Below are positions 32,964 through 54,134 of a stretch of 64,000 bases of DNA, in pieces (position 1 is the first letter of the stretch; every line of letters starts with the position of its first letter). The notes under the pieces were generated by a model. The model saw nothing but the letters and a program-made list of their open reading frames with translations. It ran no database searches and was not told the DNA's origin. This DNA is from Actinomycetes bacterium. GTDB lineage: Bacteria > Actinomycetota > Acidimicrobiia > Acidimicrobiales > Bog-793. The stretch covers positions 13,659-77,658 of the forward strand of contig JAJZZB010000003.1 in assembly GCA_021797795.1 (NCBI GenBank). Reading direction: 5' to 3'. Position numbers and translations under genes: made by a program.

Positions 32964-32993
32964 GGCGACTCGGCCTCCGAGCGCCGAGGCGCC

Positions 32994-34676
32994 TCAGCCG
33001 GCCTGGCGGTCGTAGACGACCGAGCCGTCGACGAGGGTGAGGTCGACGCCGACGAGTCCGATCTCGGAGGAGGGGACCGAGAAGACGTCCCGGTCGAGGA
33101 CGACGAGGTCGGCCCGCTTGCCGACGGTGATCGAGCCGGTCGTCTCCTCGAGATGGTTGAAGTAGGCCGAGCCGAGCGTGAAGGCCTCGATCGCCGTGGC
33201 GAGGTCCATCCGCTCGTCGGGCAGGAAGGGCGTCTCGGCCGCGTCGCCGCCACCGTAGGCATAGTCGGGCGGGACGGTCCGGTTGACCGCGACGTGAATC
33301 TCCGAGAGGGCGTTCGGCGTCGAGACCGGCCAGTCACTGCCGAAGCAGAGCCGGGCGCCGGCCCGCTTCAGGCTGGCGAAGGGGTACTGGGTGCTCGCCC
33401 GCTCGGGGCCGAGGAAGGGGAGGGTCAGCTCGGTCATCTGCGGCTCGTAACAGGCCCACAGCGGCTGGCCGTTGGCCAGCAGGCCGAGGGCGGCGAAGCG
33501 GGGGAGGTCCTCTGGGTGGACGACCTGGATGTGGGCGGCGCAGTGTCGGTGGTCGGAGGTTCCGTTCGCCCTCCTCGCCGTCTCGACGGCGTCGAGGACC
33601 TCCCGCACGGCGCGGTCGCCGATGGCGTGGAAGTGGGCCTGGAAGCCCTCTCTGTCCACCCTCGTGACGTACTGCTTGAGCTCCTCCGGGTTGAAGAAGC
33701 TCGTGCCGTGGTTGTGGGTGGCGTGCCCCTCCCGGTCGAGATAGGGCGTCAGCATGGCGGCCGTGAAGTTCTCGCAGACGCCGTCCTGCATGAACTTGAC
33801 CGAGCTCGCGCGAAAGCGCCCACCCGGGGCGGCCGCCTTCTCCCGGCGGGCGAGCAGGTGGTCGATCTGGCCCTCGCCGCCGTCGCGGGACCACCAGAGC
33901 GCCCCGACGACGCGTGCGGTGAGGCGGCCGTCGGCATCGAGGGCGAGGAAGGCGTCGAAGCAGTCCGGGACGACCGGGTAGTCGCCGACGATGGCCTCCT
34001 GCCAGGCGGTGATGCCGAGGCTGTGGAGGTAGCGCTGGCCCTCGAGGATGCCGTTCGCCAGCGCCTCGACGGTCGGCGCCGGGACGACTCGCTGGACGAG
34101 CGCCATGGCGCCCTCCTGCAGGGTCCCGACCGGCTCGCCGCCGGCGTCCCGCTCGATCCTGCCGTCGGCGGGGTCGGGTGTGCCGGCACGGATCCCGGCG
34201 CGCTCGAGGGCGACCGAGTTCGCCCAGGCGGCGTGGTGGTCGCGATTGGAGAGGAAGACCGGGCGGTCGGGGACGACCGAGTCGAGCTCCTCCTTGAGCG
34301 GCACTCCCCCCGGGAAGACGTCCATCGCCCAGCCGCCACCGGTGATCCACTCGACCTCAGGGTGGGCGGCGGCGGAGGCGGCGAGGATGGCGAGATACTC
34401 CTCCCTGCTGTGGGCCTCGGAGAGGTCGCACCGGCTGCGCTCGAGGCCGCCGCCCGAAGCGTGCACGTGCGCGTCCTGGAAGCCGGGCAGGAGGCTGCGA
34501 CCGGCGAGGTCGACGACCTCGGTGCGGGCGCCGGCGAGCTCTCGAACCTCATCATCGCTGCCGACAGCGACGATGACGCCGTCGCGCACCGCCACGGCCC
34601 CTGCGGTCGGCAGGTCGGCGTCCACGGTGTGAACGGCCCCGTTCTTGAAGATGAGGTCCGCCTCGGAGGTGGTCAT
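32994..34676 (-). CDS. Amidohydrolase family 3 (YtcJ/NfdA-like)
   Basis: PGFQDAHVH, FHAIGDRA, AHIQ, FGSDWPV, GSITVGKRADLVVLD. Confidence 0.9.
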   Translation of the reverse strand: MTTSEADLIFKNGAVHTVDADLPTAGAVAVRDGVIVAVGSDDEVRELAGARTEVVDLAGRSLLPGFQDAHVHASGGGLERSRCDLSEAHSREEYLAILAASAAAHPEVEWITGGGWAMDVFPGGVPLKEELDSVVPDRPVFLSNRDHHAAWANSVALERAGIRAGTPDPADGRIERDAGGEPVGTLQEGAMALVQRVVPAPTVEALANGILEGQRYLHSLGITAWQEAIVGDYPVVPDCFDAFLALDADGRLTARVVGALWWSRDGGEGQIDHLLARREKAAAPGGRFRASSVKFMQDGVCENFTAAMLTPYLDREGHATHNHGTSFFNPEELKQYVTRVDREGFQAHFHAIGDRAVREVLDAVETARRANGTSDHRHCAAHIQVVHPEDLPRFAALGLLANGQPLWACYEPQMTELTLPFLGPERASTQYPFASLKRAGARLCFGSDWPVSTPNALSEIHVAVNRTVPPDYAYGGGDAAETPFLPDERMDLATAIEAFTLGSAYFNHLEETTGSITVGKRADLVVLDRDVFSVPSSEIGLVGVDLTLVDGSVVYDRQAG

Positions 34677-36403
34677 CTCGCTGCTCGCTCCCCTCTCGGT
34701 CGCTGCCGGCGCCTGTGCGCCGGTCCGTCGTCGTTGCTCCTCGGTGGCGCCTCGAGGCGCCCGTCCGCCCGGTCGGCCTCCTCGGCGACGACCGGTCGGC
34801 GCGTCGGCGCACCGTAGCCGCCTCCCCCGCTGGTCTCGATGCGGACGACCGACCCCGGCTCGAGGGTCATGGTGACCTTGGAGGGGACGGGGACCTCGAC
34901 GCCGTCGGGCCCGAAGAGCCGGAGACGGGAGGGCGCGCCGTCACCGCCACCGGCCGCTCCGCGCGGGGGGAAGCGGGGGTCAGTCTGCTCGGAGTACATC
35001 GTCACCGTCGCCGGACGCTCGAGCACCTGGTAGTCCCGGCGCAGACCGAGGCCGCCGTGGTGCTCGCCGGTGCCCGCCGAGCCGGGGATCAGCTCGGTGC
35101 GCAGGATGCGCACCGAGTAGTCGCTCTCGGCCACCTCGACCGGCATGAGGCCGACGTTTGCCATGTAGGTGTCGACGCCGTCCAGCCCGTCGCCGCCGGC
35201 ATGGGCGCCCGTCCCGCCGCCAACGACCTCCGCCATGACGCTCGAGAGGCCGCTGCGGGGCGAGACGCTCTCGAGGTTCATGCCGAAGAAGGCGACCGTG
35301 CTGCTCGCCACGGCCTTGTGCGGCCACAGCTCGGAGGCCGCCCGCACGAGGGTGTCGGCGAGCCGCTGGCAGGTGTTGTGGCGGACCGAGACGGCCGCCG
35401 GCGGCTCGGGGTTCAACAGGACCCCGCGGGGGCAGACGATCTCGAGCGGGCGGAGGATCCCGTCGTTGGTCGCCATCGAGGGGTCGGTCATCGCCCGCAG
35501 GGCGTAGACGACGGCCGCCCGGGTGCTCGCCCAGGGGACGTTGAGCGCCCCGCTCAGCTGCGGGGCGGTGCCCGACAGGTCCACCAGCAGCTCGTCGCCC
35601 GTCTTCACGAGGCGGGCGTGGATCCGCTGGGGCGGGCCGCCGGTGCCGTCGTCGTCGAGGAAGCCCTCCGCCTCGGACTCGCCGTCGGGGAGGGCGGCGA
35701 GCGCCGCGCGGACGGCCCGCTCGACCGAGTCGAGCATCTCGTCGAAGGCGGCCAGCAGCCTGGGCGTCCCGTAGCGGGCGGCCAGCTCCTCGATGCGCGA
35801 CACGCCGATCAGGCAGGCCGCCCGCTGGGCGCGCAGGTCCGACAGCGTGGAGCGCGGGTCGCGCACGGCCGCCGCCACGATGGAGACGACGTCGGGGTTC
35901 TCCCGGCCGGCGCGGTAGAGGCGCACCGGCGGGAGCACGAGGCCCTCGGCGTAGACCTCCCTCAGGTCCGGTCCCTCGGTGCCCGGCCGCACCCCTCCGA
36001 CGTCGATGTGGTGCGCCGTCGTGCCGGTCCAGGCGACCAGGTGGCCGCCCAAGAAGACGGGCATGATCACGTTCAGGTCGGGGGTGTGCATGGCCCCCAT
36101 GTAGGGATGGTTGGCGAGATAGGCGTCCCCCGGCTCGACGGCGTCACCCCAGCGTTCGATCAGGTTCTTCACGACGAGCGACATCGCCCCGAGCTGGGCG
36201 GGGATGAAGTCGGCCTGGGCGACGAGGTCGCCGTCGGAGCGGAACACGGCGCAGCTGAAGTCGTCCATCTCGCGGATGATCGGGCTGTAGCTCGAGTGCT
36301 TCAGCACGCCGCCCATCTCGACGGCAGCCGAGTGCAGGGCGGCCGAGATCAGCTCGAAGGTGACCGCCGGCAGCCGAGTGCCGGCGCCGGTCCGCCGGCT
36401 CAC
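34673..36403 (-). CDS. Hydantoinase B / oxoprolinase subunit
   Basis: SSYSPIIREMDDFSCA, NHPYMGAMHTPD, HHIDVGG, GGGGYG; GTGA overlaps. Confidence 0.92.
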   Translation of the reverse strand: MSRRTGAGTRLPAVTFELISAALHSAAVEMGGVLKHSSYSPIIREMDDFSCAVFRSDGDLVAQADFIPAQLGAMSLVVKNLIERWGDAVEPGDAYLANHPYMGAMHTPDLNVIMPVFLGGHLVAWTGTTAHHIDVGGVRPGTEGPDLREVYAEGLVLPPVRLYRAGRENPDVVSIVAAAVRDPRSTLSDLRAQRAACLIGVSRIEELAARYGTPRLLAAFDEMLDSVERAVRAALAALPDGESEAEGFLDDDGTGGPPQRIHARLVKTGDELLVDLSGTAPQLSGALNVPWASTRAAVVYALRAMTDPSMATNDGILRPLEIVCPRGVLLNPEPPAAVSVRHNTCQRLADTLVRAASELWPHKAVASSTVAFFGMNLESVSPRSGLSSVMAEVVGGGTGAHAGGDGLDGVDTYMANVGLMPVEVAESDYSVRILRTELIPGSAGTGEHHGGLGLRRDYQVLERPATVTMYSEQTDPRFPPRGAAGGGDGAPSRLRLFGPDGVEVPVPSKVTMTLEPGSVVRIETSGGGGYGAPTRRPVVAEEADRADGRLEAPPRSNDDGPAHRRRQRPRGERAAR

Positions 36404-38454
36404 CGGACCTCCTCGATCCACAGGCTCCCCCGCCGGTCGACGCGGGCGGACTGGCCGTCGAGAACGAGGGTGGTGGCGTCGTGCTGGTGGACGATGGCCG
36501 GGCCGTCGAAGCGGTGGCCGGACCGCAGCGCCGCCCGGTCGTAGACCGGGATGCCGACCCGGTGGGCGCCGCCCGGGAGCCGGGCGGAGGTCGTCGTCAC
36601 CATCGCCGAGGACGCCGTGCTGCGACCGGCGGGAGAGACGCCCTCCTGGCGCGCCTTCGGCAGGGCGCCGAAGGCGGACAGCCGCAAGGTGACGACCTCG
36701 ACCGTTCCCTCCGGGTCACGGTGGCCGTAGGTCCGCTGGTGGAGCTCAGCGAAGCGCTCGGGCAGCTCGGCGAGCGCCGCCTCGCTGAGTGGTGAGATCT
36801 GCACGGCGAGCTCGTAGCCCTGCCCAACGTAGCGGCAGTCGGCCGAGGCGACGAGGCGGGCCGGGCGCCCCGAGACGCCGTCGTCGGCAAGCCGGGCCCG
36901 TATCTCCTCGGCCGTCGAGCGCAGCCACCCAGCGAGCGCCGGCAGCATCTCCTCGGTGAGCGGGGCGAGCACCGTGCGGGACTCGTCGACGCGCAGGTCG
37001 GTCGAGACGAGGCCGGCCGCGGCGAACAGCCCCGGGTAGCGCGGGACGAGCACGGAGCCGAACCGGAGCTCTCGCAGCAGCAGGCCGGCATGCAGCGGGC
37101 CGGCGCCGCCGAAGGCGACGAGGGTGTAGCCCTCGGGGTCGATCCCGCGCTCGACTGAGACCCGCCGGAGGGCGAGGCTCATCTGGGCGACCGACACCTG
37201 GACGATGCCGTCGGCCGCCTCCTCAAGGCTGAGCCCCATCTCCTCACCGACCCGGCCGACGACCTTGCGGGCCGCCTCGAGGTCGAGCCCGAGCCCGCCG
37301 GCGAGGGAGAGGCCGGTCGGAAGCGTGCCGAGGACGACGTGGGCGTCGGTGACGGTCGCCTCCTCGCCTCCCCGCCCGTAGGCGGCCGGACCGGGCTGGG
37401 CGCCGGCGCTGCGGGGCCCGACGCTGAGCCGGCCGGTCGGGCCGACCTCGGCGATGCTGCCGCCGCCGGCGCCGATCGTCACCATGTCGACCGAGGGGCA
37501 CAGGATCGGGTGGCCGGCGATGGTCTCGGTGGGCGTGAGCGGTGGCGTCCCGTGCGCCACCAGGCAGACGTCGAGCGACGTCCCGCCCATGTCGAAGGAG
37601 ACAAGGCGCTCGATGCCGTACTCCTGCCCGAGGGCGACCGTGCCGGCGACGCCAGCCGCCGGCCCGGAGAGGAGCAGGCGGTGCGCCTCCTCGTCGGCCC
37701 GGGCGGCGGGGACGCAGCCGCCGTTCGACTGCATGATCATTAGGCGGCCCGAGACCCCGAGGCGCTCGAGACGGGAGGTGGCCGAGACGAGGTAGCGCCC
37801 GACGACCGGGCGGAGCCCGGCGTTCACCGCCGCCGTGGCCGTCCGCGGGTACTCCCTGAACTCGCGGGCGAGGCGGGCCGAGCGGGCGACGGGCACGCCC
37901 CCGAGACGACGCTCGAGTGCCTCGGCCATCTGCTCCTCGTGGCGGTCGTCGAGGTAGCTGAACAGGAAGGCGACCGCGACGGCCTCGGGCCTGCGGGCGG
38001 CCACCTCGTCGACGACCCGGGCGATCTCCGCCTCGCTCAGCGCGGTGACGATCTCTCCCGTGCTCGACAACCGCTCGCGCGCCTCGACGCGGTCGCGGCG
38101 GGCGACGAGTTCGCCCGGACGGGGCTGCTGGAGGTCGTAGACCGACGGGCGGGTCCCGTTGCGGTAGCTGAGGACGTCCCCGAAGCCCTCGGTCGTGACG
38201 AGAACCACGCGGGCGAGCCGGCCGGTCAGCATGGCGTTCGTGGCGACGGTGGTGCCGTGGAAGACGAGGTGGGCGGAGCCGAGCGGGAGCCCCGCCCGCT
38301 CGAGCTCGGCCAGGGCCTCCTCGAAGGCGATGGCCGGGTCCTCGGGCGTGGAGGGCACCTTGGCCACGAGCGTCCCTCCCGCCGCGCTGACGGCGACGGC
38401 GTCGGTGAAGGTGCCGCCGACGTCGACGGCGACGAGGAAGCGCCCCGGTCTCAC
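36400..38454 (-). CDS. Hydantoinase A / oxoprolinase subunit (ATP-dependent lactamase)
   Basis: VDVGGTFTD, HGTTVATNA, REYPRTATA, LSGPAAGV, FDMGGTSLDV, AFGGAGPLHA. Confidence 0.92.
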   Translation of the reverse strand: MRPGRFLVAVDVGGTFTDAVAVSAAGGTLVAKVPSTPEDPAIAFEEALAELERAGLPLGSAHLVFHGTTVATNAMLTGRLARVVLVTTEGFGDVLSYRNGTRPSVYDLQQPRPGELVARRDRVEARERLSSTGEIVTALSEAEIARVVDEVAARRPEAVAVAFLFSYLDDRHEEQMAEALERRLGGVPVARSARLAREFREYPRTATAAVNAGLRPVVGRYLVSATSRLERLGVSGRLMIMQSNGGCVPAARADEEAHRLLLSGPAAGVAGTVALGQEYGIERLVSFDMGGTSLDVCLVAHGTPPLTPTETIAGHPILCPSVDMVTIGAGGGSIAEVGPTGRLSVGPRSAGAQPGPAAYGRGGEEATVTDAHVVLGTLPTGLSLAGGLGLDLEAARKVVGRVGEEMGLSLEEAADGIVQVSVAQMSLALRRVSVERGIDPEGYTLVAFGGAGPLHAGLLLRELRFGSVLVPRYPGLFAAAGLVSTDLRVDESRTVLAPLTEEMLPALAGWLRSTAEEIRARLADDGVSGRPARLVASADCRYVGQGYELAVQISPLSEAALAELPERFAELHQRTYGHRDPEGTVEVVTLRLSAFGALPKARQEGVSPAGRSTASSAMVTTTSARLPGGAHRVGIPVYDRAALRSGHRFDGPAIVHQHDATTLVLDGQSARVDRRGSLWIEEVR

Positions 38455-39503
38455 GGGTTGCCTCCGGCGAGCTCCCGGGAGCGGGGGGCGGCCCTGGTGG
38501 CGAAGAGCTCGAGGGACCGGAGCTGCACCTCCCGGGGGAGCCCGGGCAGGTAGAGGCGGGCGATGAAGTGCAGCTCGCCGCCCGCCGCCCGGCGGAAGGC
38601 GTCGATCGCATCGGCCACCTCGTCGGGGCTGCCCACGATCGAGCCGGCGCGGGCCGCCGCCAGCTCCTCGCCGCTCGGCGGCGGAGGCGTGACCGGGCCG
38701 AGCCGGCCGCGGGCGGACTCCATGTCCTCGTACTTCCAGTTGACATAGCGCAGGTGGTCCGCCGCCACGGCGAAGGCGTCGTCGTCCTCCGAGCAGAAGA
38801 CCGGCACGTGCAGGCTGATCTCGAAGGGGTGGACGGGCGCCTCGTCGCGGCGGGCCAACTCCTCGCGGGCCCAGCCGCACTGCTCGGCGAGGCCGGCCGG
38901 CTCGACCTCGGTCGCCATGAGCCCGTCGGCGAGACGCCCCGCCCGGCGCACCGCCGGCTCGCTCATGGCCCCGACGACGATCGGGGGGCCATCCGGTCGG
39001 CACGGCTTCGGGAAGACGCACGGGCCGGGGATGGGGTGGCGTGCCGTCCCGGTGACGGCCCCGCCCCCGAAGGCCTGGCGGAGGACGGCGATGGCGTCGG
39101 CGAGCCGCCCCACCCGCTCGGAGAGCGGCACGGCGAAGCTCTCGAACTCCTCCTCGCGCCAGCCAAGGCCGATGCCGAGGCGGAGGCGGCCGCCGGAGAT
39201 GAGGTCGACGACCGCCGCGTCCTCGGCGATGCGCAGCGGGTCGTGCAACGGGGCGAGCAGGAGCGCCGTGCCGACCTCGATGCGCTCGGTCCGGGCCGCG
39301 ATGGCGGCGCACAGGGGCATGACCGAGGGCAGGTAGCCGTCGTCGACGAAGTGGTGCTCGGACACGTAGACCGAGTCGAGCCCGAACCGCTCCGCCGCCA
39401 CGGCGAACTCGAGCGCCTCCTCGTAGAGCCGGCGGTCGCTGCGGTGGTCGCCCGGGTAGCGCTGGCAGGTGATCAGCCCGGCGCCGAGCCGGAGGGCCGT
39501 CAC
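38451..39503 (-). CDS. LLM-class (luciferase-like) flavin- or F420-dependent oxidoreductase
   Basis: VSEHHFVDDGYLPS, IEVGTALLLAPLHDPLRIAEDAAVVDLISGGRL, SIVGSPDEV. Confidence 0.9.
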   Translation of the reverse strand: MTALRLGAGLITCQRYPGDHRSDRRLYEEALEFAVAAERFGLDSVYVSEHHFVDDGYLPSVMPLCAAIAARTERIEVGTALLLAPLHDPLRIAEDAAVVDLISGGRLRLGIGLGWREEEFESFAVPLSERVGRLADAIAVLRQAFGGGAVTGTARHPIPGPCVFPKPCRPDGPPIVVGAMSEPAVRRAGRLADGLMATEVEPAGLAEQCGWAREELARRDEAPVHPFEISLHVPVFCSEDDDAFAVAADHLRYVNWKYEDMESARGRLGPVTPPPPSGEELAAARAGSIVGSPDEVADAIDAFRRAAGGELHFIARLYLPGLPREVQLRSLELFATRAAPRSRELAGGNP

Positions 39504-40642
39504 GACCGGGGCCGGGGCGCGAGGAGCTCGCCGTAATCGAGCCGGCGGAACGGCGTCGAGCACGGCGGGCCGTCGGCCAGCCACATTGTCCGGCTGGCGA
39601 GCTCCATCACGAGCGAGGCCACCGTCGCCCCCTGCTCGGCCGGCGGGTACTCGGGCCGCGGGTGGCAGCAGATGGCGTCGGGGTATCCGGCGTGGTCTCC
39701 GAGCAGCGCCCGCATCTCCTCGGCGCTCGGGCTGCCGTTACCGAGCTGCGCACGTGCGCGCTCGAGGCGGACGGCGCTGTCGGGCATGGCGAACAGCGAG
39801 ACGTCCTCACCGTCGAAGCGGGGGGAGACGAAGTGGTTGGTGTGCAGGTGGACGCCGACCGCGGCCGGCGAGACGAACAGGCGGGAGTGGTCGCCCGGGG
39901 CGGCCTCGACGTCGAGGGCGGAGCCGTCCTCGTGGGCGACGAGGAAGTTCGCCGAGGAGGAGCGCCTCGCCCGCTGGAGGGTGGTGAGCGCCTCGGTGAC
40001 CGTCGCGCAGTCGAAGATCGCCCGGAGCAGCACGTGGTAGGGCACCCCCGGCTCGCCGACATCGGCGGCGGTGGCGAGGGCGTTCGTGGCGAGGCCGAGA
40101 CCGGCCGAGTTCATCCCGGCCTTGGCGGCGAGTCCGGCCTCGACGACGGTGACGAAGCTCGGGCCGTCCTCCCGGACCGCCTCGAGGACGACGACAGTCT
40201 CGAAGGCGTGCGGCAGCCAGTCCCAGTTCTGGCCAATGACGACCGGCCGGTCGGAGCCCGACCGCGGGGCGAGGGCGAACGACGTGCACTCGCCGCCGAA
40301 GAAGGCGGCCCTCGCGTCGCGGGCCTTGGCCGAGTACATGATCTCGGTCCGGACGTTGATAGCGAGGACGTCGAGCAGGTCGGTGCCCACCCCCTGGGCG
40401 ATGCCGGAGAGCTCCTCGAGGTAGTCGCGCCCGAAGGCGGCGATCGGCGCCTCGTAGCCGGCCGCCACCTCCCGCACCGTGGACCAGTCCCAGCCGGCGC
40501 CCTCCTCGAACACCTCCCGGTAGGCGGCGATGGAGCGCTCGACGCGCGAACGGGTCGCGGCCCCGTAGGCGAGCCCCCGCTCACGCGGGTCGCCCTCGAC
40601 GCGGACGTGGGGGTAGGTGGCGTGCTCCATCGGTGCTGGCAT
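39500..40642 (-). CDS. Peptidase C45 / acyl-CoA:6-APA acyltransferase family Ntn hydrolase
   Basis: GECTSF (N-terminal nucleophile Cys after autoprocessing), GQNWDW, AGMNSAGL, HTNHF. Confidence 0.88.
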   Translation of the reverse strand: MPAPMEHATYPHVRVEGDPRERGLAYGAATRSRVERSIAAYREVFEEGAGWDWSTVREVAAGYEAPIAAFGRDYLEELSGIAQGVGTDLLDVLAINVRTEIMYSAKARDARAAFFGGECTSFALAPRSGSDRPVVIGQNWDWLPHAFETVVVLEAVREDGPSFVTVVEAGLAAKAGMNSAGLGLATNALATAADVGEPGVPYHVLLRAIFDCATVTEALTTLQRARRSSSANFLVAHEDGSALDVEAAPGDHSRLFVSPAAVGVHLHTNHFVSPRFDGEDVSLFAMPDSAVRLERARAQLGNGSPSAEEMRALLGDHAGYPDAICCHPRPEYPPAEQGATVASLVMELASRTMWLADGPPCSTPFRRLDYGELLAPRPRS

Positions 40643-40652
40643 GTGCTCCCTC

Positions 40653-41429
40653 CTAGATGGCGGTGGCACCGCCGTCGACCGGGAGGGCGGCGCCGGTGAC
40701 GTAGGCGGCATCGGGGGAGGCGAGGAAGGCGATCACCGCCGCCACCTCGTCGGCCGAGCCGAGGCGGCCGAGGGGGACCGAGCTCTCGAGGTAGGCGGCC
40801 GCCGCCACCGGGTCGTCGGTGAGCCGCAGCATGGGGGTGTCGATAACGCCCGGGCAGACGGCGTTGACCCGGATGCCGTGCGGAGCCCACTCGACGGCCA
40901 TCTGCCGGCTGAGGGCGAGCACCCCGCCCTTGCTCGCGTGGTAGTGGCCGGAGGGCTCGCCGGCGTCGCCGACGAGCGCCGCGCTCGAGGCGAGGTTGAC
41001 GACGGCGCCCGGGTGCCGCGCCGCCACGAGGGAGCGCCCGACGGCTCGGGAGACGAGGAAGGTGCCGGTGAGGTTGGTCTCGAGCACCTCGTGCCACTCC
41101 GCCGCCGACAGCTCAGTGAGGGCCTGGATCCGGTAGACGCCAGCGGCGTTGACGAGCACGTCGATCGGCCCGCCGAGCACGCGGGCGGCCTCCGCCACGG
41201 CCCGGTCCACGGCCTCCTCGTCGGCCACGTCGGCGATGACGAGGCTCATCCCGTCGACCTCCCCGCCGGGAGCCTCCCGGCGGTCGAGGGCCACGACCGC
41301 CCCGCCCTCTGCGGCGAGCCGGCGCGCCGTGGCGAGCCCGATGCCCGATGCCCCGCCCGTGACGAGGCAGCGCCGGCCGGCCATCCTGGCGGGCAGGGGG
41401 ACGGGCGCCTCAGTTGTGGAAGACGCCAC
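40653..41429 (-). CDS. Short-chain dehydrogenase/reductase
   Basis: TGGASGIG, VNAAG, YHASKGG, VNAVCPG, VDGG; start may be ATG near 41384. Confidence 0.9.
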   Translation of the reverse strand: MASSTTEAPVPLPARMAGRRCLVTGGASGIGLATARRLAAEGGAVVALDRREAPGGEVDGMSLVIADVADEEAVDRAVAEAARVLGGPIDVLVNAAGVYRIQALTELSAAEWHEVLETNLTGTFLVSRAVGRSLVAARHPGAVVNLASSAALVGDAGEPSGHYHASKGGVLALSRQMAVEWAPHGIRVNAVCPGVIDTPMLRLTDDPVAAAAYLESSVPLGRLGSADEVAAVIAFLASPDAAYVTGAALPVDGGATAI

Positions 41430-42180
41430 CGTTCACCCCGATCGTCTGGCCGGTCACATACGAGGCGTCGGCGGAGGCGAGCCAGCTCACCACCCCGGCG
41501 ATGTCGGCTCCCGTGCCGTGGCGTCCGAGCGGGATCTCGGCCCGCACCGCCTGAAACTGCTCCTCAAAGGAGGTCCCGGCCCGCTCGGCACGCGCCCGCA
41601 GCTCGTCCCAGTGCATCTCGGTCGCCATGTGCCCCGGGGCGATGGCGTTCACCCGGATCCCCTCTGGGGCGAGCTCGCGGGCCATTGACTGGGTGAGCAG
41701 GGCGACGCCGGCCTTCGAGGCCGAGTAGGCGGCGCCGCCGGGCACCCCCTGCTGGCCAAAGAGGGAGCCCATGTTGACGATGCTGCCGCCGGTGCCCTGG
41801 GCGAGCATTGCGGAGACGACGAGGCGCGAGACGAGGAAGGTCCCGACGAGGTTGATGTCGAGGACGTGGCGGAAGGACTCGGGCTCGGTCGAGACGACGG
41901 GCGTGCTCGGGCCGCCGATGCCGGCGTTGTTCACGAGCAGGTCGACCCCGCCGAGGACGGCGAGCGCCCCGGAGACGGCCGAGGCGCACTCCTCGACGAG
42001 CGCGACGTCGGCCACCACCGGGGCGATCGTCGCGGCCGGGGACTTGGCCGAGAGGCGCTTGGCCGTGACCTCGACGGCAGAATCGACGTCGACGAGGACG
42101 ACGTCGCCGCCATCCTCCACGATGCGGGCGGCGATTGCCTCCCCAAGGCCGCGCGCCGCGCCGGTGACGATGGCCCTCAC
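41410..42180 (-). CDS. Short-chain dehydrogenase/reductase
   Basis: TGAARGLG, NNAGI, YSASKA, VNAIAPG, TGQTIGVNGG; GTGA overlap. Confidence 0.9.
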   Translation of the reverse strand: MRAIVTGAARGLGEAIAARIVEDGGDVVLVDVDSAVEVTAKRLSAKSPAATIAPVVADVALVEECASAVSGALAVLGGVDLLVNNAGIGGPSTPVVSTEPESFRHVLDINLVGTFLVSRLVVSAMLAQGTGGSIVNMGSLFGQQGVPGGAAYSASKAGVALLTQSMARELAPEGIRVNAIAPGHMATEMHWDELRARAERAGTSFEEQFQAVRAEIPLGRHGTGADIAGVVSWLASADASYVTGQTIGVNGGVFHN

Positions 42181-42956
42181 AACGACGACGCGATCTCGGC
42201 CGCCGTCGCGACCCAGACGTCCTCGTGGCTCTTCACGTAGCCGAGGAAGGCGTCGAGCAGCGCCAGCCGGCTCGGCCTCCCGATGATCTGCGGGTGCATC
42301 GTGAGCACGAAGGCTCCTCCCATCTGCCGGATGCCGAGGAACTCCTCCTGCCAGATGGAGCGCACGTCGGCGGTGGTCGAGATCGTGTTGGTCCAGCCGG
42401 CGCCGTCGAACCAGAAGTGGGCGGCGTCGTCGAGGATCCACTGGATCGGCAGCTCCACGACGCTCGTGCCCGGGTGGCGGTAGGGGCGGATGTCGTCCAT
42501 CAGGTTGGAGCAGTAGCTGAGGCCGTACTTCTCGACCAGGCCGAGCGTCACCGGGGTGAGCTCCCAGGAGGGAGAGCGGTAGCCGGTCACCTTCGGGGAG
42601 AAGCCGCGAAGCACCTCGAGGCCGCGGCGCATCTCCTCCTCCTCCTCCTCGGGGCTGAGGGAGGTGACCGAGGTGTGGGTGTAGCCGTGATGGGCGAGCT
42701 CGTGGCCGGCGGCGACGATCTGCTCGACGCGGCCGGGGTGGCGCTCGGCCACCCGGCCGGGGACGAAGAAGGTCGCCCGCACCTGGTGGCGCTCGAGCAA
42801 CTCGAGGATCGCCGGCACAGCCACCCTGGCGCCGTAGCCCCCCTGGGAGAGCACGCCCGGGCGGGAGCCATTGGCCGGGTCCTCGCCGATCCAGACCTCC
42901 TCGGCGTCGAAGTCGAAGGTGAAGCAGGCTGCGGCGGCGGCGTCACGGGGCCACAT
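42177..42956 (-). CDS. Polysaccharide-deacetylase (CE4) fold protein, PuuE-like small-molecule amidohydrolase
   Basis: FTFDFD, GHELAHHGYTH, GYRSPSW, TMHPQIIGRPSR. Confidence 0.85.
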   Translation of the reverse strand: MWPRDAAAAACFTFDFDAEEVWIGEDPANGSRPGVLSQGGYGARVAVPAILELLERHQVRATFFVPGRVAERHPGRVEQIVAAGHELAHHGYTHTSVTSLSPEEEEEEMRRGLEVLRGFSPKVTGYRSPSWELTPVTLGLVEKYGLSYCSNLMDDIRPYRHPGTSVVELPIQWILDDAAHFWFDGAGWTNTISTTADVRSIWQEEFLGIRQMGGAFVLTMHPQIIGRPSRLALLDAFLGYVKSHEDVWVATAAEIASSL

Positions 42957-44055
42957 CGGTCGGCGCTCCTGTCGTGTCGTGGATGGCGATGGGGTCGAGC
43001 GCCCCGGCGGTCCCTCCGGCCGGCGCGACGCCCTCGGTCGCCTCCGGCTCCTCGGCCTCCTCCTCGCCTTCCTCCGCCCAGGCGGACAGGCGGGCCCGCA
43101 CCTTGCCGACGAGGCCGACGATCCCGCCGGGGACGAAGACGACGATGACGAGCAGGAAGATGCCGACGACGGTCAGCTGGACACCGGGATGGTTGACGAG
43201 CACCGTCTCGACGACGGTGACGATGGTCGTCCCGATCGCCGGTCCGAAGATGGTGCCGAGGCCGCCGATGACGAGCATGGTGACGTCGAGGCTCATCGGG
43301 GTGAGACCCATGATCGACGGGTCGATCGACTGCTCGAAGCACAGGTAGAGCGCCCCCGCGATGCCAGCGAGGAAGCCCGAGAGGCCGAAAGCGAGGATCC
43401 GGTAGCGAAGCGGGCTCACGCCCCGGGCGGCCGCGAACGCCGGCGCGTCCCGGATCGCCCTGAGGGCGATGCCGAGCCTCGACCGCGTGACGAGTGCGAT
43501 GGCGACGGTCGAGGCGACGATCACCCCGAGCAGCGTCCAGTAGTAGGCGTGCATGGAGGCGACCGGCGACAGGAACGAGTAGAGACCCTTCACGCTCGGG
43601 AAGCCGTAGGAGCCGCCCGTCAGCCCGCTGCCGTCGTTCAGGATCAGGTACTGGACGATCTCGGCGAAGGCGAAGGTGAGCAGCGAGGTGTAGATCCCGA
43701 ACAGCCGCAGCGTCGGGACCGCCATCAGCACCGAGACCGCCGCCCCGATGAGCCCGCCCACGACGACGTCGAGGACGGGCGGGAGGCCCGTGTGCAGCAT
43801 GAGGATGCCGGCGCCGTAGCCGCCGAGGGCGTAGACGGCCAGTTGGCCGAAGTTCCACACGCCGGCGACGCCGAGGATGAAGTTCCAGCTCATGTTCATC
43901 ACGAGCAGGATCATCGTGGTGACGAAGACCGAGAGGATGTACTGGTTGGACTCGACGAGGGGGAAGGCCGCCAGCGCCAGGACGACGAGGACCGCCAGGC
44001 TCCACCGCCCGCTCGTCATGTCGGGGAACAGCGCCCGGCTGTGCCCCTCGTTCAC
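42943..44055 (-). CDS. livM: Branched-chain-type ABC permease (LivM)
   Basis: MSWNFILGVAGVWNFGQ, TFAFAEI, LTGGSYG, GLGTIFGP. Confidence 0.9.
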   Translation of the reverse strand: MNEGHSRALFPDMTSGRWSLAVLVVLALAAFPLVESNQYILSVFVTTMILLVMNMSWNFILGVAGVWNFGQLAVYALGGYGAGILMLHTGLPPVLDVVVGGLIGAAVSVLMAVPTLRLFGIYTSLLTFAFAEIVQYLILNDGSGLTGGSYGFPSVKGLYSFLSPVASMHAYYWTLLGVIVASTVAIALVTRSRLGIALRAIRDAPAFAAARGVSPLRYRILAFGLSGFLAGIAGALYLCFEQSIDPSIMGLTPMSLDVTMLVIGGLGTIFGPAIGTTIVTVVETVLVNHPGVQLTVVGIFLLVIVVFVPGGIVGLVGKVRARLSAWAEEGEEEAEEPEATEGVAPAGGTAGALDPIAIHDTTGAPTDVAP

Positions 44056-44942
44056 AGCCGAGCCTCCGAGGGCTTCCCGAGCAGGCCCTGGGGCCGGAAG
44101 ATGAGGACGAAGAGGATCACCCCGTAGAGGATCGGGAGCGACCAGGTCGTCCCGAGGAACACCTCGGTCGTGGCCTGGATGAGCCCGATGACGTAGGCGG
44201 CGTAGACCGTGCCGGGCAGGCTGCCGAGCCCGCCGAAGACGACGACGATGAGCGCCTCGAGCAGCGGCAGATCGCCCGCCTGGGGGTAGGCGAAGAACTG
44301 GGCGCCGAGGAAGACGCCCGCCACGCCCGCCAGCGAGGAGGCGAGCCCCATGGTGACGGGGTAGAGCTTGGAGACCGGGACGCCCATCAGGCGGGCGGCG
44401 TCCAGGTCCTGCGCGACTGCCCGGATGGCCATGCCCCACCGGGTCTTGCCGAGGAACAGCCCGAGGCCGCCCATCAGCAGGATCGAGATGGCCGCCATGG
44501 CGATCGACTGATAGGGCAGGTTCACCCCGTGGTAGACGTTCACGCCGCCGGAGACGACCGGCGTGACGTTGCGCTGCTGGGGGCCGAAGACCTCGAGGGC
44601 GACGTTCTCGAGGATCATCGCGACGGCGAAGGTCGTGATGAAGGTGACCATCTCGAAGTCGATGGCCTTGCGCCGACCCATGAGGGGCTGGACCGAGACG
44701 AGCTGGGTCATCATCCCGAGGACGAAGGTGGCGGCGAAGGCGAAGACGATGGCGAGGACGGGGTTCCAGTGGGCCGAGACGAGGATCCCCCAGCCGACGA
44801 AGCTACCGATCATCACCATCGATCCCTGGGACATGTCGAGGATGCGCAGGGTCCCGTAGATGAGCGTCATGCCGATCGCCACGAGCCCGTAGATGGACCC
44901 AAGGATGACGGTCGTGACGAGGATTCCGACGAGGTCGGTCAT
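44052..44942 (-). CDS. livH: Branched-chain-type ABC permease (LivH)
   Basis: LGSIYGLVAIGMTLIYG, WGMAIRAVAQD..ARLMGV, VFGGLGSLPG. Confidence 0.92.
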   Translation of the reverse strand: MTDLVGILVTTVILGSIYGLVAIGMTLIYGTLRILDMSQGSMVMIGSFVGWGILVSAHWNPVLAIVFAFAATFVLGMMTQLVSVQPLMGRRKAIDFEMVTFITTFAVAMILENVALEVFGPQQRNVTPVVSGGVNVYHGVNLPYQSIAMAAISILLMGGLGLFLGKTRWGMAIRAVAQDLDAARLMGVPVSKLYPVTMGLASSLAGVAGVFLGAQFFAYPQAGDLPLLEALIVVVFGGLGSLPGTVYAAYVIGLIQATTEVFLGTTWSLPILYGVILFVLIFRPQGLLGKPSEARL

Positions 44943-45664
44943 CAGGTGATGCTCCCGAGGTAGGCCGCGACAACGCCTTCGTCCTCGGAGAGCTCCTTGT
45001 AGGAGCCGCTCCGGGTGATCGAGCCCATCTCGAGGACGTGGATCGAGTCGGCGATGCCGCCGACGTGGGTGAAGTTCTCCTCGACGAGGAGGATCGTCGT
45101 CTTGGCGGACTTGAGCTCGGCGATGGCGCCGTAGACGGCGTCGAGCGCGACGGGGGCGAGGCCGAGCGAGGGCTCGTCGATCATGAGGATCGTGGACGGG
45201 CGCATGAGCGCCCGGCCGAGCGCGCTGAGGCGCCGCTCTCCCCCGGACAGGGTCCGCGCCTGCTGGTCGGCCCGGGCCTTCACGCCGGGGAAGAGGTCGT
45301 AGACGTGGGCGAGCGAGCGGCGCCGGTCCCTCCAGGACTGCCCGAGGAAGGCCCCCATGAGGAGGTTGTCCTCCACGGTCATCTCCGGGAAGAGGCCGTC
45401 GCCCTGGGGGACGAGCACCGCTCCGAGGCGGGCGATCTGCTCGGACGGGCGGCCGGCGATCTCCTCGCCATCGAGGAGGACCTCTCCGGCGCTCGGCCTG
45501 ATCAGGCCGTTGAGCGCCCGCAGGAGCGTCGTCTTGCCGTGACCGTTCGGGCCGATGATGACGGCCGACTCGCCTGCGCGCACCTCGAGGTCGAGCTCCC
45601 TCACGACCGTCGTGGCGCCGTATCCGGCCGACAGCCGGCGCACCGAGAGCAGCGGCTCGCTCAC
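44942..45664 (-). CDS. livF: ABC ATPase (LivF)
   Basis: GPNGHGKTT, LSGGE, MIDEPSLGLAP. Confidence 0.92.
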   Translation of the reverse strand: MSEPLLSVRRLSAGYGATTVVRELDLEVRAGESAVIIGPNGHGKTTLLRALNGLIRPSAGEVLLDGEEIAGRPSEQIARLGAVLVPQGDGLFPEMTVEDNLLMGAFLGQSWRDRRRSLAHVYDLFPGVKARADQQARTLSGGERRLSALGRALMRPSTILMIDEPSLGLAPVALDAVYGAIAELKSAKTTILLVEENFTHVGGIADSIHVLEMGSITRSGSYKELSEDEGVVAAYLGSIT

Positions 45665-46416
45665 TGCGCCGCCTCCCTGCGGTGCCGCGAGCCGAGGTAG
45701 ACCTCGATCACCCGCTCGTCGCGGAGCATTTCCTCCGGGCTCCCCTCGAAGAGGGCGGCGCCGTGGTGCATGACGAGGACCCGGTCCGCCAGCGAGGTGA
45801 GCGCCCGCATGACGTGCTCGATGCAGACGACGGCGAGGTCCGCGCCCCGCGACCGCCGGATGAGGTCCATCGTGAGCTCGATCTCGCCGAAGCTGAGGCC
45901 GCCGAAGGGCTCGTCGAGCAGGAGCGCCCGGGCGCCCGAGGCGAGCGCCGTCCCGAGCATCAGCCGCTTGGTGTCGAAGACGCCGAGCAGACCGGCGGTC
46001 TCCTCGGCACGGCTCTCGAGTCCGACGAAGGCCAGCATGTCGTAGGCGGCCTCGAGGGACGAGCGCTTGTCGCCCTCGGGGAGGCGGCGGCGGAAGGAAA
46101 CGGCGAGTAGCATGTTCTCGAGGACGGAGAGGGAGCGGGCGACCGTCGGCTGCTGGAAGGTGCGGGCGATGCCGCGCCGGGTCCGGTCGTGCACTGAGGC
46201 GTCGGTGACGACCGCGCCGTCGAGGACGACCTCCCCGCCCGAGGCCCGGGTGTGGCCGGAGATGACGTCGAACAGCGTCGTCTTGCCGGCGCCGTTCGGG
46301 CCGACGATGCCGAGGATCTCGCCGGGCGCCACCGAGAAGGAGATGTCGTTCACCGCTTTCAGGCCCCCGTAGCTCTTCGAGACCCCCCGGGCCTCGAGGA
46401 CGGGGCCGGCGCTCAC
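45661..46416 (-). CDS. livG: ABC ATPase (LivG)
   Basis: GPNGAGKTT, GIARTFQ, LLLDEP, CIEHVM. Confidence 0.92.
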   Translation of the reverse strand: MSAGPVLEARGVSKSYGGLKAVNDISFSVAPGEILGIVGPNGAGKTTLFDVISGHTRASGGEVVLDGAVVTDASVHDRTRRGIARTFQQPTVARSLSVLENMLLAVSFRRRLPEGDKRSSLEAAYDMLAFVGLESRAEETAGLLGVFDTKRLMLGTALASGARALLLDEPFGGLSFGEIELTMDLIRRSRGADLAVVCIEHVMRALTSLADRVLVMHHGAALFEGSPEEMLRDERVIEVYLGSRHRREAAQ

Positions 46417-47735
46417 TTCTTCAGCCAAGGCGGAAGCTGGAAGGATCCGGTCGTGTACGGGTCCGGTCCGATGAGGACCTGCTTGCCGTTCTGGATCTGG
46501 AAGGTGAGGTGCGGCATCCCGACCGAGGGGTCCTTGGTGTAATCCGGGTACGGGTAGCAGGTGAGGTAGTCGTCCGGCCAGCTGTAGGCCCCGCAGACGC
46601 CGCGGTAGATCGTGTTCTTCACTATTGCGTTCACCTTGTCGAAGGCGTAGGGGTCGCCCGCCTCGGCCACGGCGTCCGCCCAGATGCGGACGAGGTCGTA
46701 CTGGTCGCCGGCGTTGGAGAAGCCGGGCGAGGCGTTGAACTTCTGCTCGAAGGCGGTGTTGAACCGCTGGGAGATGTAGTCGCCCTCGACGACGCCGACG
46801 ACCGTCGACCAGATGACGCCGTCGGCCGCCGCGCCGGCGAGCTGGAGGTACTGTGGGATCGACGGCGCGTACTGCTGGTAGACGAGCGAAGGGGTCGGCG
46901 ACTGGCGGAACTGCTTGATGAACGACGCCTCGTCGCCGGCCGCGTAGTCGCTGAAGAAGACGATGCCCGGCGGCGTGTTGCGGATCTGGACGAGGGCGGC
47001 CGTCCAGTCGGCCTGGGGGACGGTGAACTCCTGGAACATCGTCGTGTGCCAGCCCTGCCTGGACATCGTCGCCTGGAAGGTCTTCGAGATGTTGAGGCTG
47101 TAGGGGTCGTTGCTCGTCACGATCGCCATCGTCTTGGACGACGGCGTCCAGGTGTTCTTCTTGATGAGGTTGTCGACGAGATAGGCGAAGCCCGGCCCGT
47201 ACCAGGTCTCGGAGGGGTCGCCCTGGAAGATGTTCGTGATGCCGTTGGACTTCACGAAGTCCACGTTCCCGTGCCAGGTGTTGACGTGGAAGGTCGGGAT
47301 CTTGGCCTGGGCGACGATCGGGAACTCGACCGAGCTGTAGGTGCAGAAGGGGGCGAAGACGGCCGCCACGTTCTGGGAGACGAACTTCTGAAAGACGTTC
47401 TTCATGACGTCGGGCTGCTGCTCCTCGGTGTTGAGCACCGACAGCTGCAGGGGCCGGCCGAGCACGCCGCCGGCCGCGTTGATCTCGGCCACCGCCAGCT
47501 GCTGGCCGCGGAGCATCATCTGGCCGTCGCCGGAGTAGGCGCCCGTGACTGGCACGCCGGAGCCGATGACGAGCGGCTGTCCCTTGCCACCCGAGGCGGT
47601 CGCGTCCGAGGCGGTGGTGGAGCTGCCGTGCCCGAAGTAGCCGGCGAGGCCTCCGACGACGAGGCCGCCGGCTCCGGCTGCTCCGACGCCCTGCAGGAAC
47701 TCGCGCCGGCTGAGCGACTTGCGGTTGTTCGGCAT
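46413..47735 (-). CDS. Tat-exported ABC substrate-binding protein (type I periplasmic fold)
   Basis: Twin-arginine signal SLSRREFLQG; LVIGSGVPVTG, EINAAGGVLGRP, YAPSIP. Confidence 0.9.
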   Translation of the reverse strand: MPNNRKSLSRREFLQGVGAAGAGGLVVGGLAGYFGHGSSTTASDATASGGKGQPLVIGSGVPVTGAYSGDGQMMLRGQQLAVAEINAAGGVLGRPLQLSVLNTEEQQPDVMKNVFQKFVSQNVAAVFAPFCTYSSVEFPIVAQAKIPTFHVNTWHGNVDFVKSNGITNIFQGDPSETWYGPGFAYLVDNLIKKNTWTPSSKTMAIVTSNDPYSLNISKTFQATMSRQGWHTTMFQEFTVPQADWTAALVQIRNTPPGIVFFSDYAAGDEASFIKQFRQSPTPSLVYQQYAPSIPQYLQLAGAAADGVIWSTVVGVVEGDYISQRFNTAFEQKFNASPGFSNAGDQYDLVRIWADAVAEAGDPYAFDKVNAIVKNTIYRGVCGAYSWPDDYLTCYPYPDYTKDPSVGMPHLTFQIQNGKQVLIGPDPYTTGSFQLPPWLKK

Positions 47736-47926
47736 CCTCGGCCTCCTCAGGTCTGATCTTCGGTCGGGGGATCGCGAAGTCCGCACACGATCGCAGATGT
47801 CCGGGAGGGCGTCATCGGTCGATTGACGTATTTTCACTTCTTGCGATGGTCAATGATCGAGTAGGGTGCGGACGGCCAGGGGAGAGTCGTTCCGACCCTC
47901 GAAGGGGTGTGGTGCGCCAGACCAGC

Positions 47927-49687
47927 ATGGGCGGATCCGGGCCGCCGGCCCGGGCGATGACCGCCTGCGTCGACCGCAGCGGGAGGATCACCGGGGCGGG
48001 TACAGGCGCGGACGCGACGACCGCTCTCGGTCGGCACCCCGCCCTCGTTGACTACGCCATCGCGCTGCTGGGCGGTGAAGCCACCTCGGCCCGGTTCTTC
48101 TACAAGGGCGAGGGGCGCAGCTTGATCAAGGTGTCGCTCCAGCGGGACGACGACGGCGAGCGGGCCCTCGTCTCCCTCGCCGTCTCGGCGCTCCCCGCCG
48201 GACTCACCGCGAGGGAGCTCGACGTGCTCTCCATCCTCGTCGGGGGGCTCTCCAACCGGCAGATCGCCGAACGGCTCGTCACGAGCGTGCGGACGGTCTC
48301 GACCCATGTCGAGCACATCCTCGCCAAGCTCGGGCAGGAGACCCGTGCCGGCGCGGCCGCCGTCGCGGCCGAGCGAGGCTGGGTCCTGCTCCCCGTCCCG
48401 GGAGGGGTGGCGCTGCCGCCCGACCTCTCCGTCGGCGCCCTGCAGGCCCTCGCCGGCGGCGGCTCGGTAGCCGACACGCCCACGTCCCCCCGGCGCCCGC
48501 CCCGCCGCCGCCGAACCCTCGTCATCGGATCGGCCTTCCCCCTGAGCGGGCCGGCGGCGGCCGACGGGCTCGAGATGCTGAACGGCTCGGCGCTCGCCGT
48601 CGCCGAGCTGAACTCCCGGGGCGGGATCACCGGACGGCGGATCGAGCAGCTCGTCGTCGACGCCGACATCTTCTCGGTCGACGGCGTCCAGCGGGCGCTC
48701 GAGACGCTCGTGGCGGCCGGCGTCGACGCCATCACGTCGGGCTACGTCTTCATAGAGGATCCCGCGAGAGAGGTCGCCGCCGACTACGGCGCTCCCTACC
48801 TGCACTCGATGACCTCTGAGTCACAGGCCCGGATCGTGAGCGACAACCACGAGCTGTACCGCAGCATCTTCCAGGTCTGCCCGACCGAGCGCTACTACGC
48901 GAGCGGCTTCGTCCGGTTCCTCGCCGACCTCGAGGCCTCCGGCAGCTGGACCCCGCACGCCCGCCGACTCGCCTTCCTCGAGACTGCGCTGCCGAGCGGG
49001 CAGATGCTTAACGAGCTCGCCGTCGAGGCGGCCCACCGGGCGGGGTACTGCATCTCGGCCGAGACGGTGGCGCCGCTCGGGGCCGACTGGGGGGCCGTTG
49101 TCGACTCGCTCGAGCGCACCGACCCGGCGGCGGTGATGGTGACGCAGTTCCTCGCGAGCGAGCTCGCCGCCTTCCAGCGGGAGATCGCGAGGCGCGCCCC
49201 TCACGTCCTCGTCTACGGGGTCTACGCCCCCTCCGTACCGGAGTTCCTCGACCTCGCCGGCCCGGCAGCTGAGGGGATGTGCTGGGCGACGGTCACCGGC
49301 ACCTACTCCGACACGATCGGGGCGCAGTTCCGCCAGAGCTACGAGCGGGCCTGGGGCCGGCCGGCCGGGCGCTCCAACGCCGGCATCGCCTACGACGAGA
49401 TCCACCTGCTCGCCCAGGCCTGGTGCACCGTGGCCGAGCCGTCCGACTTCAGGTCGGTCGCCGACCAGCTGCGGCGGGTGCGCTACCGCGGGGTGAACGG
49501 GGCCTACTACCTCGACAACCCCGGGCAGTGCGGCCTCGTCTTCCCCGACGCCACGCCCGACCCCTCGCTCGCCCAGGCCCACCTCGTCTTCCAGATCCAA
49601 GGGGGCGCCCACCGCATCGTCGCCCCGGCGCCCTACGCAGACGCCACGTTCCGCTGGGCTCCGCTGAGCCGCCTCACCGCCGACTGA
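47927..49687 (+). CDS. One-component regulator: N-terminal region + LuxR/GerE HTH + C-terminal substrate-binding-protein domain
   Basis: LTARELDVLSILVGGLSNRQIAERLVTSVRTVSTHVEHILAKLG; then LVIGSAFPLSG, ELNSRGGITGRRIE; no signal peptide; start 47927 or 47957. Confidence 0.85.
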   Translation: MGGSGPPARAMTACVDRSGRITGAGTGADATTALGRHPALVDYAIALLGGEATSARFFYKGEGRSLIKVSLQRDDDGERALVSLAVSALPAGLTARELDVLSILVGGLSNRQIAERLVTSVRTVSTHVEHILAKLGQETRAGAAAVAAERGWVLLPVPGGVALPPDLSVGALQALAGGGSVADTPTSPRRPPRRRRTLVIGSAFPLSGPAAADGLEMLNGSALAVAELNSRGGITGRRIEQLVVDADIFSVDGVQRALETLVAAGVDAITSGYVFIEDPAREVAADYGAPYLHSMTSESQARIVSDNHELYRSIFQVCPTERYYASGFVRFLADLEASGSWTPHARRLAFLETALPSGQMLNELAVEAAHRAGYCISAETVAPLGADWGAVVDSLERTDPAAVMVTQFLASELAAFQREIARRAPHVLVYGVYAPSVPEFLDLAGPAAEGMCWATVTGTYSDTIGAQFRQSYERAWGRPAGRSNAGIAYDEIHLLAQAWCTVAEPSDFRSVADQLRRVRYRGVNGAYYLDNPGQCGLVFPDATPDPSLAQAHLVFQIQGGAHRIVAPAPYADATFRWAPLSRLTAD

Positions 49688-54112: not shown

Positions 54113-54134
54113 GATCCTCCCCGACCCCATGCCG

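Follow-up and report, generated by a model that had tools for sequence, protein, structure and literature searches.

A LuxR-type regulator fused to a binding-protein domain, and its comparative link to a divergent importer and amidase operon in uncultured Actinomycetota

We analysed a stretch of 64,000 nucleotides (hereafter the window) from the Actinomycetes bacterium assembly GCA_021797795.1 (contig JAJZZB010000003.1, positions 13,659 to 77,658), whose source genome amounts to 3.8 Mb in 324 contigs and is 94% complete, and we focused on a divergent pair of genes within it. One of them, REG, encodes a protein in which a LuxR-type helix-turn-helix (HTH) is joined to a binding-protein domain, and the other, SBP, encodes an exported substrate-binding protein and opens an operon for an ATP-binding cassette (ABC) importer and a series of catabolic enzymes. 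The comparative evidence makes it likely that REG is a soluble one-component transcription factor that responds to a ligand through its binding-protein domain and, in the most probable case, activates the SBP-ABC-amidase operon through a palindrome in the REG/SBP intergenic region. The features concerned are the following.

47927..49687, plus strand: REG, 586 aa, cytoplasmic regulator (public gene call, P0001, 100% identity)
47957..48184, plus strand: PAS-like N-terminal small alpha/beta domain of REG, aa 11-86 (AF2 models)
48203..48367, plus strand: LuxR/GerE-type helix-turn-helix of REG, aa 93-147 (Pfam PF00196)
48518..49666, plus strand: type I (LIVBP-like, 3H5L-like) signal-less sensor domain of REG, aa 198-580 (Pfam PF13458, Foldseek, BLASTP to SBP)
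47814..47831, strand-neutral: candidate operator ATCGGTCGATTGACGTAT, a degenerate copy of ATCCGTCAnnTGACGGAT with 3 mismatches
47787..47792, minus strand: candidate -10 hexamer GATCGT of the operon promoter, 22 nt downstream of the operator
46413..47735, minus strand: SBP, 440 aa, exported by the twin-arginine translocation (Tat) route, first gene of the divergent operon (Pfam, TIGR01409)

The HTH of REG matches the GerE profile PF00196 over 55 of 57 profile positions (E 4.5e-14, 52.2 bits against a gathering cut-off of 23.5), and its matches in the PDB are the DNA-binding domains of DevR, NarL and VraR. C-terminal to it lies a Peripla_BP_6 domain (PF13458, E 3.3e-28, 99.8 bits against a cut-off of 31.7). 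The full-length model obtained with AlphaFold2 (AF2) from 62 homologues has a mean predicted local distance difference test score (pLDDT) of 92.3, with values above 90 in the sensor domain, and it orders the chain as an alpha/beta domain (aa 11-86), the HTH (about 95-150), one further helix, a disordered segment (182-191) and a two-lobed domain (about 198-570). In a Foldseek search of this model, the top match was 3H5L (E 3e-32, template modelling score (TM) 0.86), followed by many receptors of the LivJ/LivK type; the neighbour at rank 4 is PDB 8WCH, a SAR11 binding protein with L-pyroglutamate (5-oxoproline, a lactam). REG has neither a signal peptide nor a membrane segment nor a hydrophobic N-terminal stretch and starts with a folded domain; it is a cytoplasmic protein and not an exported transport receptor. 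Its open reading frame (ORF) opens upstream of the called start, at 47846 as against 47927. SBP carries a Peripla_BP_6 domain as well (E 8e-31), and its SRREFL twin-arginine motif clears the TIGR01409 cut-off. A preliminary description of this DNA, made from the letters alone, had proposed a LuxR-type HTH and a signal-less, SBP-like binding-protein domain in REG, and Pfam and BLASTP bear out both parts, with both genes lying where they had been placed.

The same description had regarded the internal position of the HTH, N-terminal to the sensor, as unusual for LuxR proteins. The position is real, since the chain of 586 aa continues for about 430 aa beyond the HTH (aa 93-147), but a PAS-like domain ahead of the HTH makes it less odd. 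This small domain has the secondary structure strand-strand-helix-helix-strand-strand-strand (AF2; pLDDT 90 when modelled by itself), and in Foldseek it comes closest to PAS domains (PYP, ThkA, RHA05790) and to roadblock proteins, with E 0.02-0.2 and TM 0.5-0.64; with none at E <= 0.001, the fold search gave no significant match and leans weakly to PAS or roadblock. The region is conserved among REG orthologues, and the first hairpin shows a PAS-like V-D-x-x-G-x-I motif in some of them. The autoinducer-binding domain PF03472 was not found by Pfam at E <= 0.01, and the N-terminal domain comprises only about 76 aa; the Pfam matches of REG likewise include no LacI-type HTH (PF00356) and no core of the Peripla_BP_1/3 type. 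As modelled, the first 150 aa or so would follow the ordinary LuxR order, a sensor-like domain and then the HTH, to which the binding-protein domain is appended.

REG belongs to a conserved family of one-component regulators that is real and old and apparently uncharacterised. In a collection clustered at 90% identity, each of its 120 best matches, at 52-100% identity, holds both GerE and Peripla_BP_6. Searching the sensor alone against 1.84 billion representatives gave 190 clusters (50% identity) at E <= 1e-30, and the 143 usable relatives, that is, those aligned over more than 330 sensor residues, a set that includes both window proteins and sampled SBP orthologues, comprise about 75 HTH fusions of 540-650 aa and about 58 signal-bearing binding proteins. 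The family is rare, being present in 2 of 401 genomes of a one-per-species set of the phylum, and is chiefly one of uncultured Actinomycetota. In the NCBI and JGI records the REG orthologues (P0001-P0120), where named at all, are labelled 'ABC transporter substrate-binding protein' or 'branched-chain amino acid transport system substrate-binding protein', which is a systematic misannotation because the HTH is present and the signal peptide is missing. NCBIfam gave REG domain-level matches only, far under every family cut-off, and hence no curated name. In two much larger proteins, P0316 (854 aa) and P0323 (1130 aa), the C-terminal domain falls on the side of the secreted SBPs in the tree described below, and the N-terminus of P0323 resembles a MalT/AAA-type LuxR regulator; they may be further independent fusions of this binding-protein subfamily.

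The link between REG and the divergent operon is well supported by conserved synteny and by an operator-like palindrome, which together give strong comparative support for a functional tie. The divergent layout, with REG facing SBP-livGFHM-deacetylase-SDR-SDR-C45 (SDR, short-chain dehydrogenase/reductase), recurs in 8 loci (L003-L008, L012, G248) at a regulator identity of 49-62%, and L003-L008, L010, L012 and L016 have retained the deacetylase, SDR, SDR and C45 genes along with REG. The REG/SBP intergenic regions have otherwise diverged, and all of them keep the 18-bp palindrome ATCCGTCAnnTGACGGAT. Nothing else in any whole locus matches it at <=3 mismatches, and its distance upstream from the SBP start codon is 78-90 nt. 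The window copy, ATCGGTCGATTGACGTAT, lies 78 nt upstream of the SBP start and is the sole match at <=3 mismatches in the 64 kb. At the same position, 7 other loci and G248 have operators with 0-2 mismatches each; the copy in G248 is a perfect palindrome, and the perfect-palindrome form of the operator is ATCCGTCAGATGACGGAT. An inverted pair, ATTGAC and GTCAAT, had been suggested beforehand as the binding site. Both hexamers are present, at 47822 and 47849, and ATTGAC turns out to be the right half of the palindrome, but GTCAAT has no counterpart in the other loci; the pair as such was rejected as the operator, with only its left arm conserved, and that within the 18-bp palindrome.

Loci with rearranged genes suggest that the operator tracks the pathway genes rather than the regulator gene. 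In L007, the deacetylase, SDR, SDR and C45 genes have parted from the ABC operon and make up a separate operon 3.6 kb away with its own copy of the operator (L007:10687-11543), where the second site, ATCCGTCATTTGACGGAG, lies about 60 nt upstream of the deacetylase block and is followed by TATGGT at offset 22. The operator also precedes the deacetylase gene in Streptomyces L011 (Streptomyces sp. NPDC001508), and in L002 (3184-7001) it stands, with 1 mismatch, at 4585; from there an amidohydrolase gene and ureAB/ureC-like genes diverge, and a -10-like box lies at offset 23 on either side. A Streptosporangiales metagenome-assembled genome (L010:3967-9689) encodes a 43%-identical regulator with the same type of sensor that faces a major facilitator superfamily (MFS) transporter and not an ABC system, followed by C45-like, deacetylase-like and SDR genes, and a symmetric variant of the operator, ATCGGTCATATGACCGAT, lies at 7798. 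There an MFS transporter takes the place of the ABC system and no binding protein is present, which shows that the regulator can do without binding-protein-dependent transport. When the genome of the window itself (3.8 Mb) was searched, 5 sites at <=3 mismatches were found, which is about chance level by a rough estimate. The most promising of them, with a near-perfect core, GTCCGTCAGATGACGGTC (G000 contig C40:99628-99645), was dismissed: it lies where a CinA-like gene and a small acetyltransferase-like ORF converge with their 3' ends and is probably a chance match or a terminator-like dyad.

The spacing around the palindrome points to a promoter. On the strand of the target gene, a hexamer of the form nAnnnT follows the palindrome by 22-23 nt in 9 of 10 loci, the background frequency being 0.048 per position. 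All 5 extra operator-target pairs show it too, which makes 14 of 15 pairs overall. The putative -35 hexamers (TGACGC, TGCCCG, TGTCCC and similar) are weak and start at the last base of the palindrome. If transcription is assumed to begin about 7 nt after the -10 box, the centre of the palindrome would fall near -44. In class II activation by LuxR-type proteins, the lux and tra boxes are centred near -43/-44, and class II promoters that depend on an activator, among them those of LuxR and TraR, typically combine a weak -35 with rigid spacing to the -10. On the REG strand, a candidate TTGAAG-17-TACAGT promoter is found in 5 loci; it ends 8 nt before the palindrome, which would there span about +2 to +19. 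These promoter assignments are what we infer from position and spacing.

Taken together, these data suggest the following mechanism. A dimer of REG would bind the 18-bp palindrome at 47814-47831 in the REG/SBP intergenic region by its LuxR-type HTH, where the site would abut the weak -35 region of the operon promoter with its centre near -44. The C-terminal binding-protein domain would close on a small ligand in the cytoplasm, which could be the imported compound itself or one of its early metabolites, and ligand binding would alter the output of REG, most likely by switching on transcription of the SBP-ABC-amidase operon. In several relatives, the palindrome lies over the putative start of REG's own promoter and could mediate autorepression. 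The gene content of the operon suggests that the ligand would be a nitrogen compound of the amide, lactam or ureide type. We infer the binding of REG to the palindrome, ligand binding by the sensor, the sign of regulation and the class of the ligand from these comparisons. The presence of hydantoinase/oxoprolinase A and B genes in the operon (window 34673-38463), together with the rank of 8WCH among the structural neighbours, gives a weak hint that the operon substrate may be lactam-like. The earlier idea of a one-component system built from the transporter's own receptor fold is retained in part: a regulator with a binding-protein fold does appear to be tied to the operon, but its sensor does not appear to come from the operon's own receptor.

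Several observations weigh against this reading. Some of the loci are close relatives of one another (L003/L004, L006/L008), and the independent observations are thus fewer than the loci. The window operator, with its 3 mismatches, is the most degenerate copy, and a strict scan of 47600-48050 for sigma-70 promoters and terminators found nothing. Moreover, an operator that overlaps the -35 region would fit a repressor equally well. REG might act like LacI, blocking the -35 of the operon and its own promoter in the ligand-free state and releasing both when the ligand is bound. The palindrome abuts or overlaps the -35 and, in the 5 loci with a candidate REG-strand promoter, would cover the first transcribed bases of REG, and LacI/GalR proteins are known for the same layout, with the HTH N-terminal to a type I binding-protein core. 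The weak -35 hexamers and the rigid spacing to the -10 box speak for activation instead, though both would be compatible with repression. We lean modestly towards activation over LacI-like repression, and repression by REG, taken as an account of the whole system, seems to us a serious but improbable alternative.

A different possibility concerns the sensor: the binding-protein domain might have lost its ability to bind a ligand and serve only dimerisation or stability, with any signal entering through the PAS-like domain or a partner protein. A folded PAS-like domain does stand before the HTH, and LuxR-family proteins commonly sense through their N-terminal domains. However, the resemblance of this domain to PAS is weak, and its first hairpin is absent or unalignable in L003, L004, L006, L008 and L012. 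The binding cleft tells against this possibility as well. As a proxy for the cleft we used the six-residue stretches that directly follow the core strands of the predicted model, and these loops are the best-conserved part of the domain among REG orthologues (83% against 76% for the rest), as expected of a working pocket, with the reservation that they were chosen by rule from a predicted model and not from a ligand-bound structure. Within each of the REG and SBP groups the loops are more conserved than the rest of the domain (83-86% against 76-77%). A sensor domain that no longer binds a ligand is accordingly very improbable in our view, and we retain a ligand-responsive REG.

The remaining question is where the sensor came from. 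The preliminary description had taken it for a paralogue of the adjacent transporter's receptor, and this could mean that REG uses the same pocket as the receptor to read the imported ligand inside the cell. Some of our results agree with such a duplication. BLASTP aligns REG collinearly with SBP (121 of 385 residues identical, 31%, E 1e-62, 6 gaps), and every collinear block quoted in support of the paralogy lies inside this alignment. Both proteins match PDB 3H5L far above the next chain (E 1e-61 and 8e-49 as against 1e-14 and 4e-11), and the REG sensor and SBP therefore share a subfamily with a C-terminal extension, a relation beyond mere fold. They are also each other's sole close homologue in the genome of the window, and the pair is linked in 8 loci.

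Within the 3H5L-like subfamily, however, REG is no closer to SBP than to generic members: it is 32% identical to the adjacent-SBP clade, whereas other binding proteins reach a mean of 34% and a maximum of 45%. The true binding proteins P0247, P0250 and P0264, which have Tat or lipoprotein signals, are 43-46% identical to the sensor, compared with 31% for the neighbouring SBP. We built a maximum-likelihood (ML) tree of 61 sequences (LG+C20), rooted on a distant Peripla_BP_6 protein, namely a second lipoprotein of that family encoded in the window without adjacent ABC genes (12727-14061, minus strand). In this tree all 32 fusion sensors form one clade with a support of 100/100, and this clade nests, at 99/99, among binding proteins that include one of Rhodopseudomonas palustris, with the clade of the neighbouring SBP outside. 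When the fusions and the neighbouring SBP clade were forced to be sisters, the approximately unbiased (AU) test rejected the arrangement (p = 0.00015, delta lnL 123), although the tested group had been named after a FastTree was viewed, which somewhat weakens the p-value. Of 45 residues specific to the SBP clade, REG orthologues share 3.2 on average, against 4.0 in unrelated fusion clades, and no column was found that is conserved and identical in the REG and SBP groups yet rare elsewhere. The cleft loops are 32% identical between the two groups, compared with 38% for the remaining domain, and the MFS transporter that replaces the ABC system in L010 is a further point against the duplication.

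The ML tree, the AU test, the residue statistics and the cleft loops together rule out a recent duplication of the adjacent SBP; descent from the transporter's own receptor is largely refuted, and we find it scarcely credible that REG reads the imported ligand with a duplicated receptor pocket. The sensor instead goes back to an ancient fusion that involved another branch of this binding-protein subfamily, and the tree gives that fusion a single origin. It is possible that REG senses the very ligand that is imported, for which the sequences offer no support.

Regulators that use a binding-protein fold as a sensor, such as LacI, LysR and AmiC, are textbook examples, and AraR and E. coli XylR combine a GntR- or AraC-type DNA-binding domain with the sugar-binding-protein fold of the LacI/GalR repressors. 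REG shares with LacI/GalR proteins the arrangement of an HTH N-terminal to a cytoplasmic sensor with a type I binding-protein fold in one polypeptide, as well as a palindromic operator at the cognate uptake or catabolic operon, which for REG is suggested by comparative evidence. It differs from them in its HTH, which is of the tetrahelical LuxR/GerE type and not the LacI type, in its sensor, which comes from the LIVBP/Peripla_BP_6 (3H5L-like) and not the ribose-binding-protein branch, in having a partly disordered linker (about 45 aa) and, at the N-terminus, an additional PAS-like domain, and in an operator geometry that suggests activation. REG thus resembles LacI/GalR proteins in design only and is not a member of that family. 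In the AmiC-AmiR system of Pseudomonas aeruginosa, AmiC is likewise a cytoplasmic LIVBP-fold protein, and it senses small amides and controls an amidase operon; however, AmiC acts as a protein of its own by sequestering AmiR, an RNA-binding antiterminator, whereas the REG sensor is fused to a DNA-binding HTH. AmiC was neither among the PDB sequence matches of REG and SBP (E <= 0.001) nor among the top 50 fold matches of REG, and no ANTAR gene was seen among the annotated operon genes, the whole window not having been scanned for ANTAR.

With class II activators of the LuxR/TraR type, REG has in common a GerE-type HTH, an N-terminal alpha/beta domain ahead of it, a divergent regulator gene and an 18-bp dyad-symmetric site that would abut the -35 with a centre near -43/-44, if the promoter of the REG target is placed correctly. 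REG differs from them in that it has no autoinducer-binding domain and that its main sensor candidate is the C-terminal binding-protein domain, and we know of no characterised LuxR protein that carries such a domain at its C-terminus. The closest solved structure to both the REG sensor and SBP is 3H5L, a structural-genomics entry for a putative branched-chain amino acid ABC binding protein of Silicibacter pomeroyi. Its identity to the REG sensor is 30%, and it defines the subfamily with the C-terminal extension; unlike REG, it is a secreted transport receptor without a DNA-binding part.

The other genes of the operon lie downstream of SBP on the same strand, in the following arrangement.

42943..46428, minus strand: ABC importer genes, whole block (Pfam ABC_tran and BPD_transp_2)
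45661-46428, minus strand: livG-like gene
44942-45664, minus strand: livF-like gene
44052-44942, minus strand: livH-like gene
42943 to ~44055, minus strand: livM-like gene
30672..42962, minus strand: catabolic genes downstream of the importer (Pfam)

By Pfam, the catabolic run encodes a polysaccharide-deacetylase-like protein, two SDRs, a C45/AAT peptidase-like protein, a luciferase-like oxidoreductase, hydantoinase/oxoprolinase A and B, an Amidohydro_3 protein and an APH-aminotransferase III fusion. Beside REG, at 51771-54130, the window also contains urease-like genes without accessory genes; no operator was found upstream of them, and a LacI-type gene stands there instead. In view of the operator next to ureAB/ureC-like genes in L002, these urease-like genes may be part of the same pathway as the REG operon.

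Full-text searching of the literature gave no paper on regulators that combine GerE with Peripla_BP_6, although such an absence is no proof that none has been published. The combination is absent from a 2012 census of actinobacterial LuxR architectures (PMC3466318), and neither a review of binding proteins in signalling (PMC8050422) nor a survey of ligands per SBP Pfam family (PMC10443332) mentions it. As far as this search showed, a LuxR-type HTH joined to a LIVBP-type domain has never been characterised. What is new here is thus, apparently, the uncharacterised fusion family, the use of an HTH with binding-protein-fold sensing being a regulator design that was known already.

A wider interpretation, which we put forward tentatively and would not yet call probable, is that proteins with the order PAS-like domain, LuxR HTH and type I binding-protein domain constitute an undescribed monophyletic class of one-component regulators, probably activators, that arose by a single ancient fusion. 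Some 70 clusters or more at 50% identity would have diverged since then, and each of them would probably respond to a small molecule of its own. The REG clade would then govern a multi-amidase pathway for an N-heterocycle, a lactam or a ureide, and its sensor pocket would differ from that of the transport receptor and read an intracellular metabolite rather than the external substrate. The naming of these proteins in databases as transporter binding proteins conceals a whole family of regulators. The phylogeny also warns against taking a receptor and a sensor for products of one duplication just because they are adjacent and look alike. LIVBP-type domains are popular scaffolds for biosensors, and a natural version that is already wired to transcription could be useful. 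The analysis also yields an operator that can be put to the test, together with a promoter geometry and a defined regulon. They belong to a C-N hydrolase-rich pathway of uncultured actinobacteria, and the ligand of REG would reveal the substrate of that pathway.

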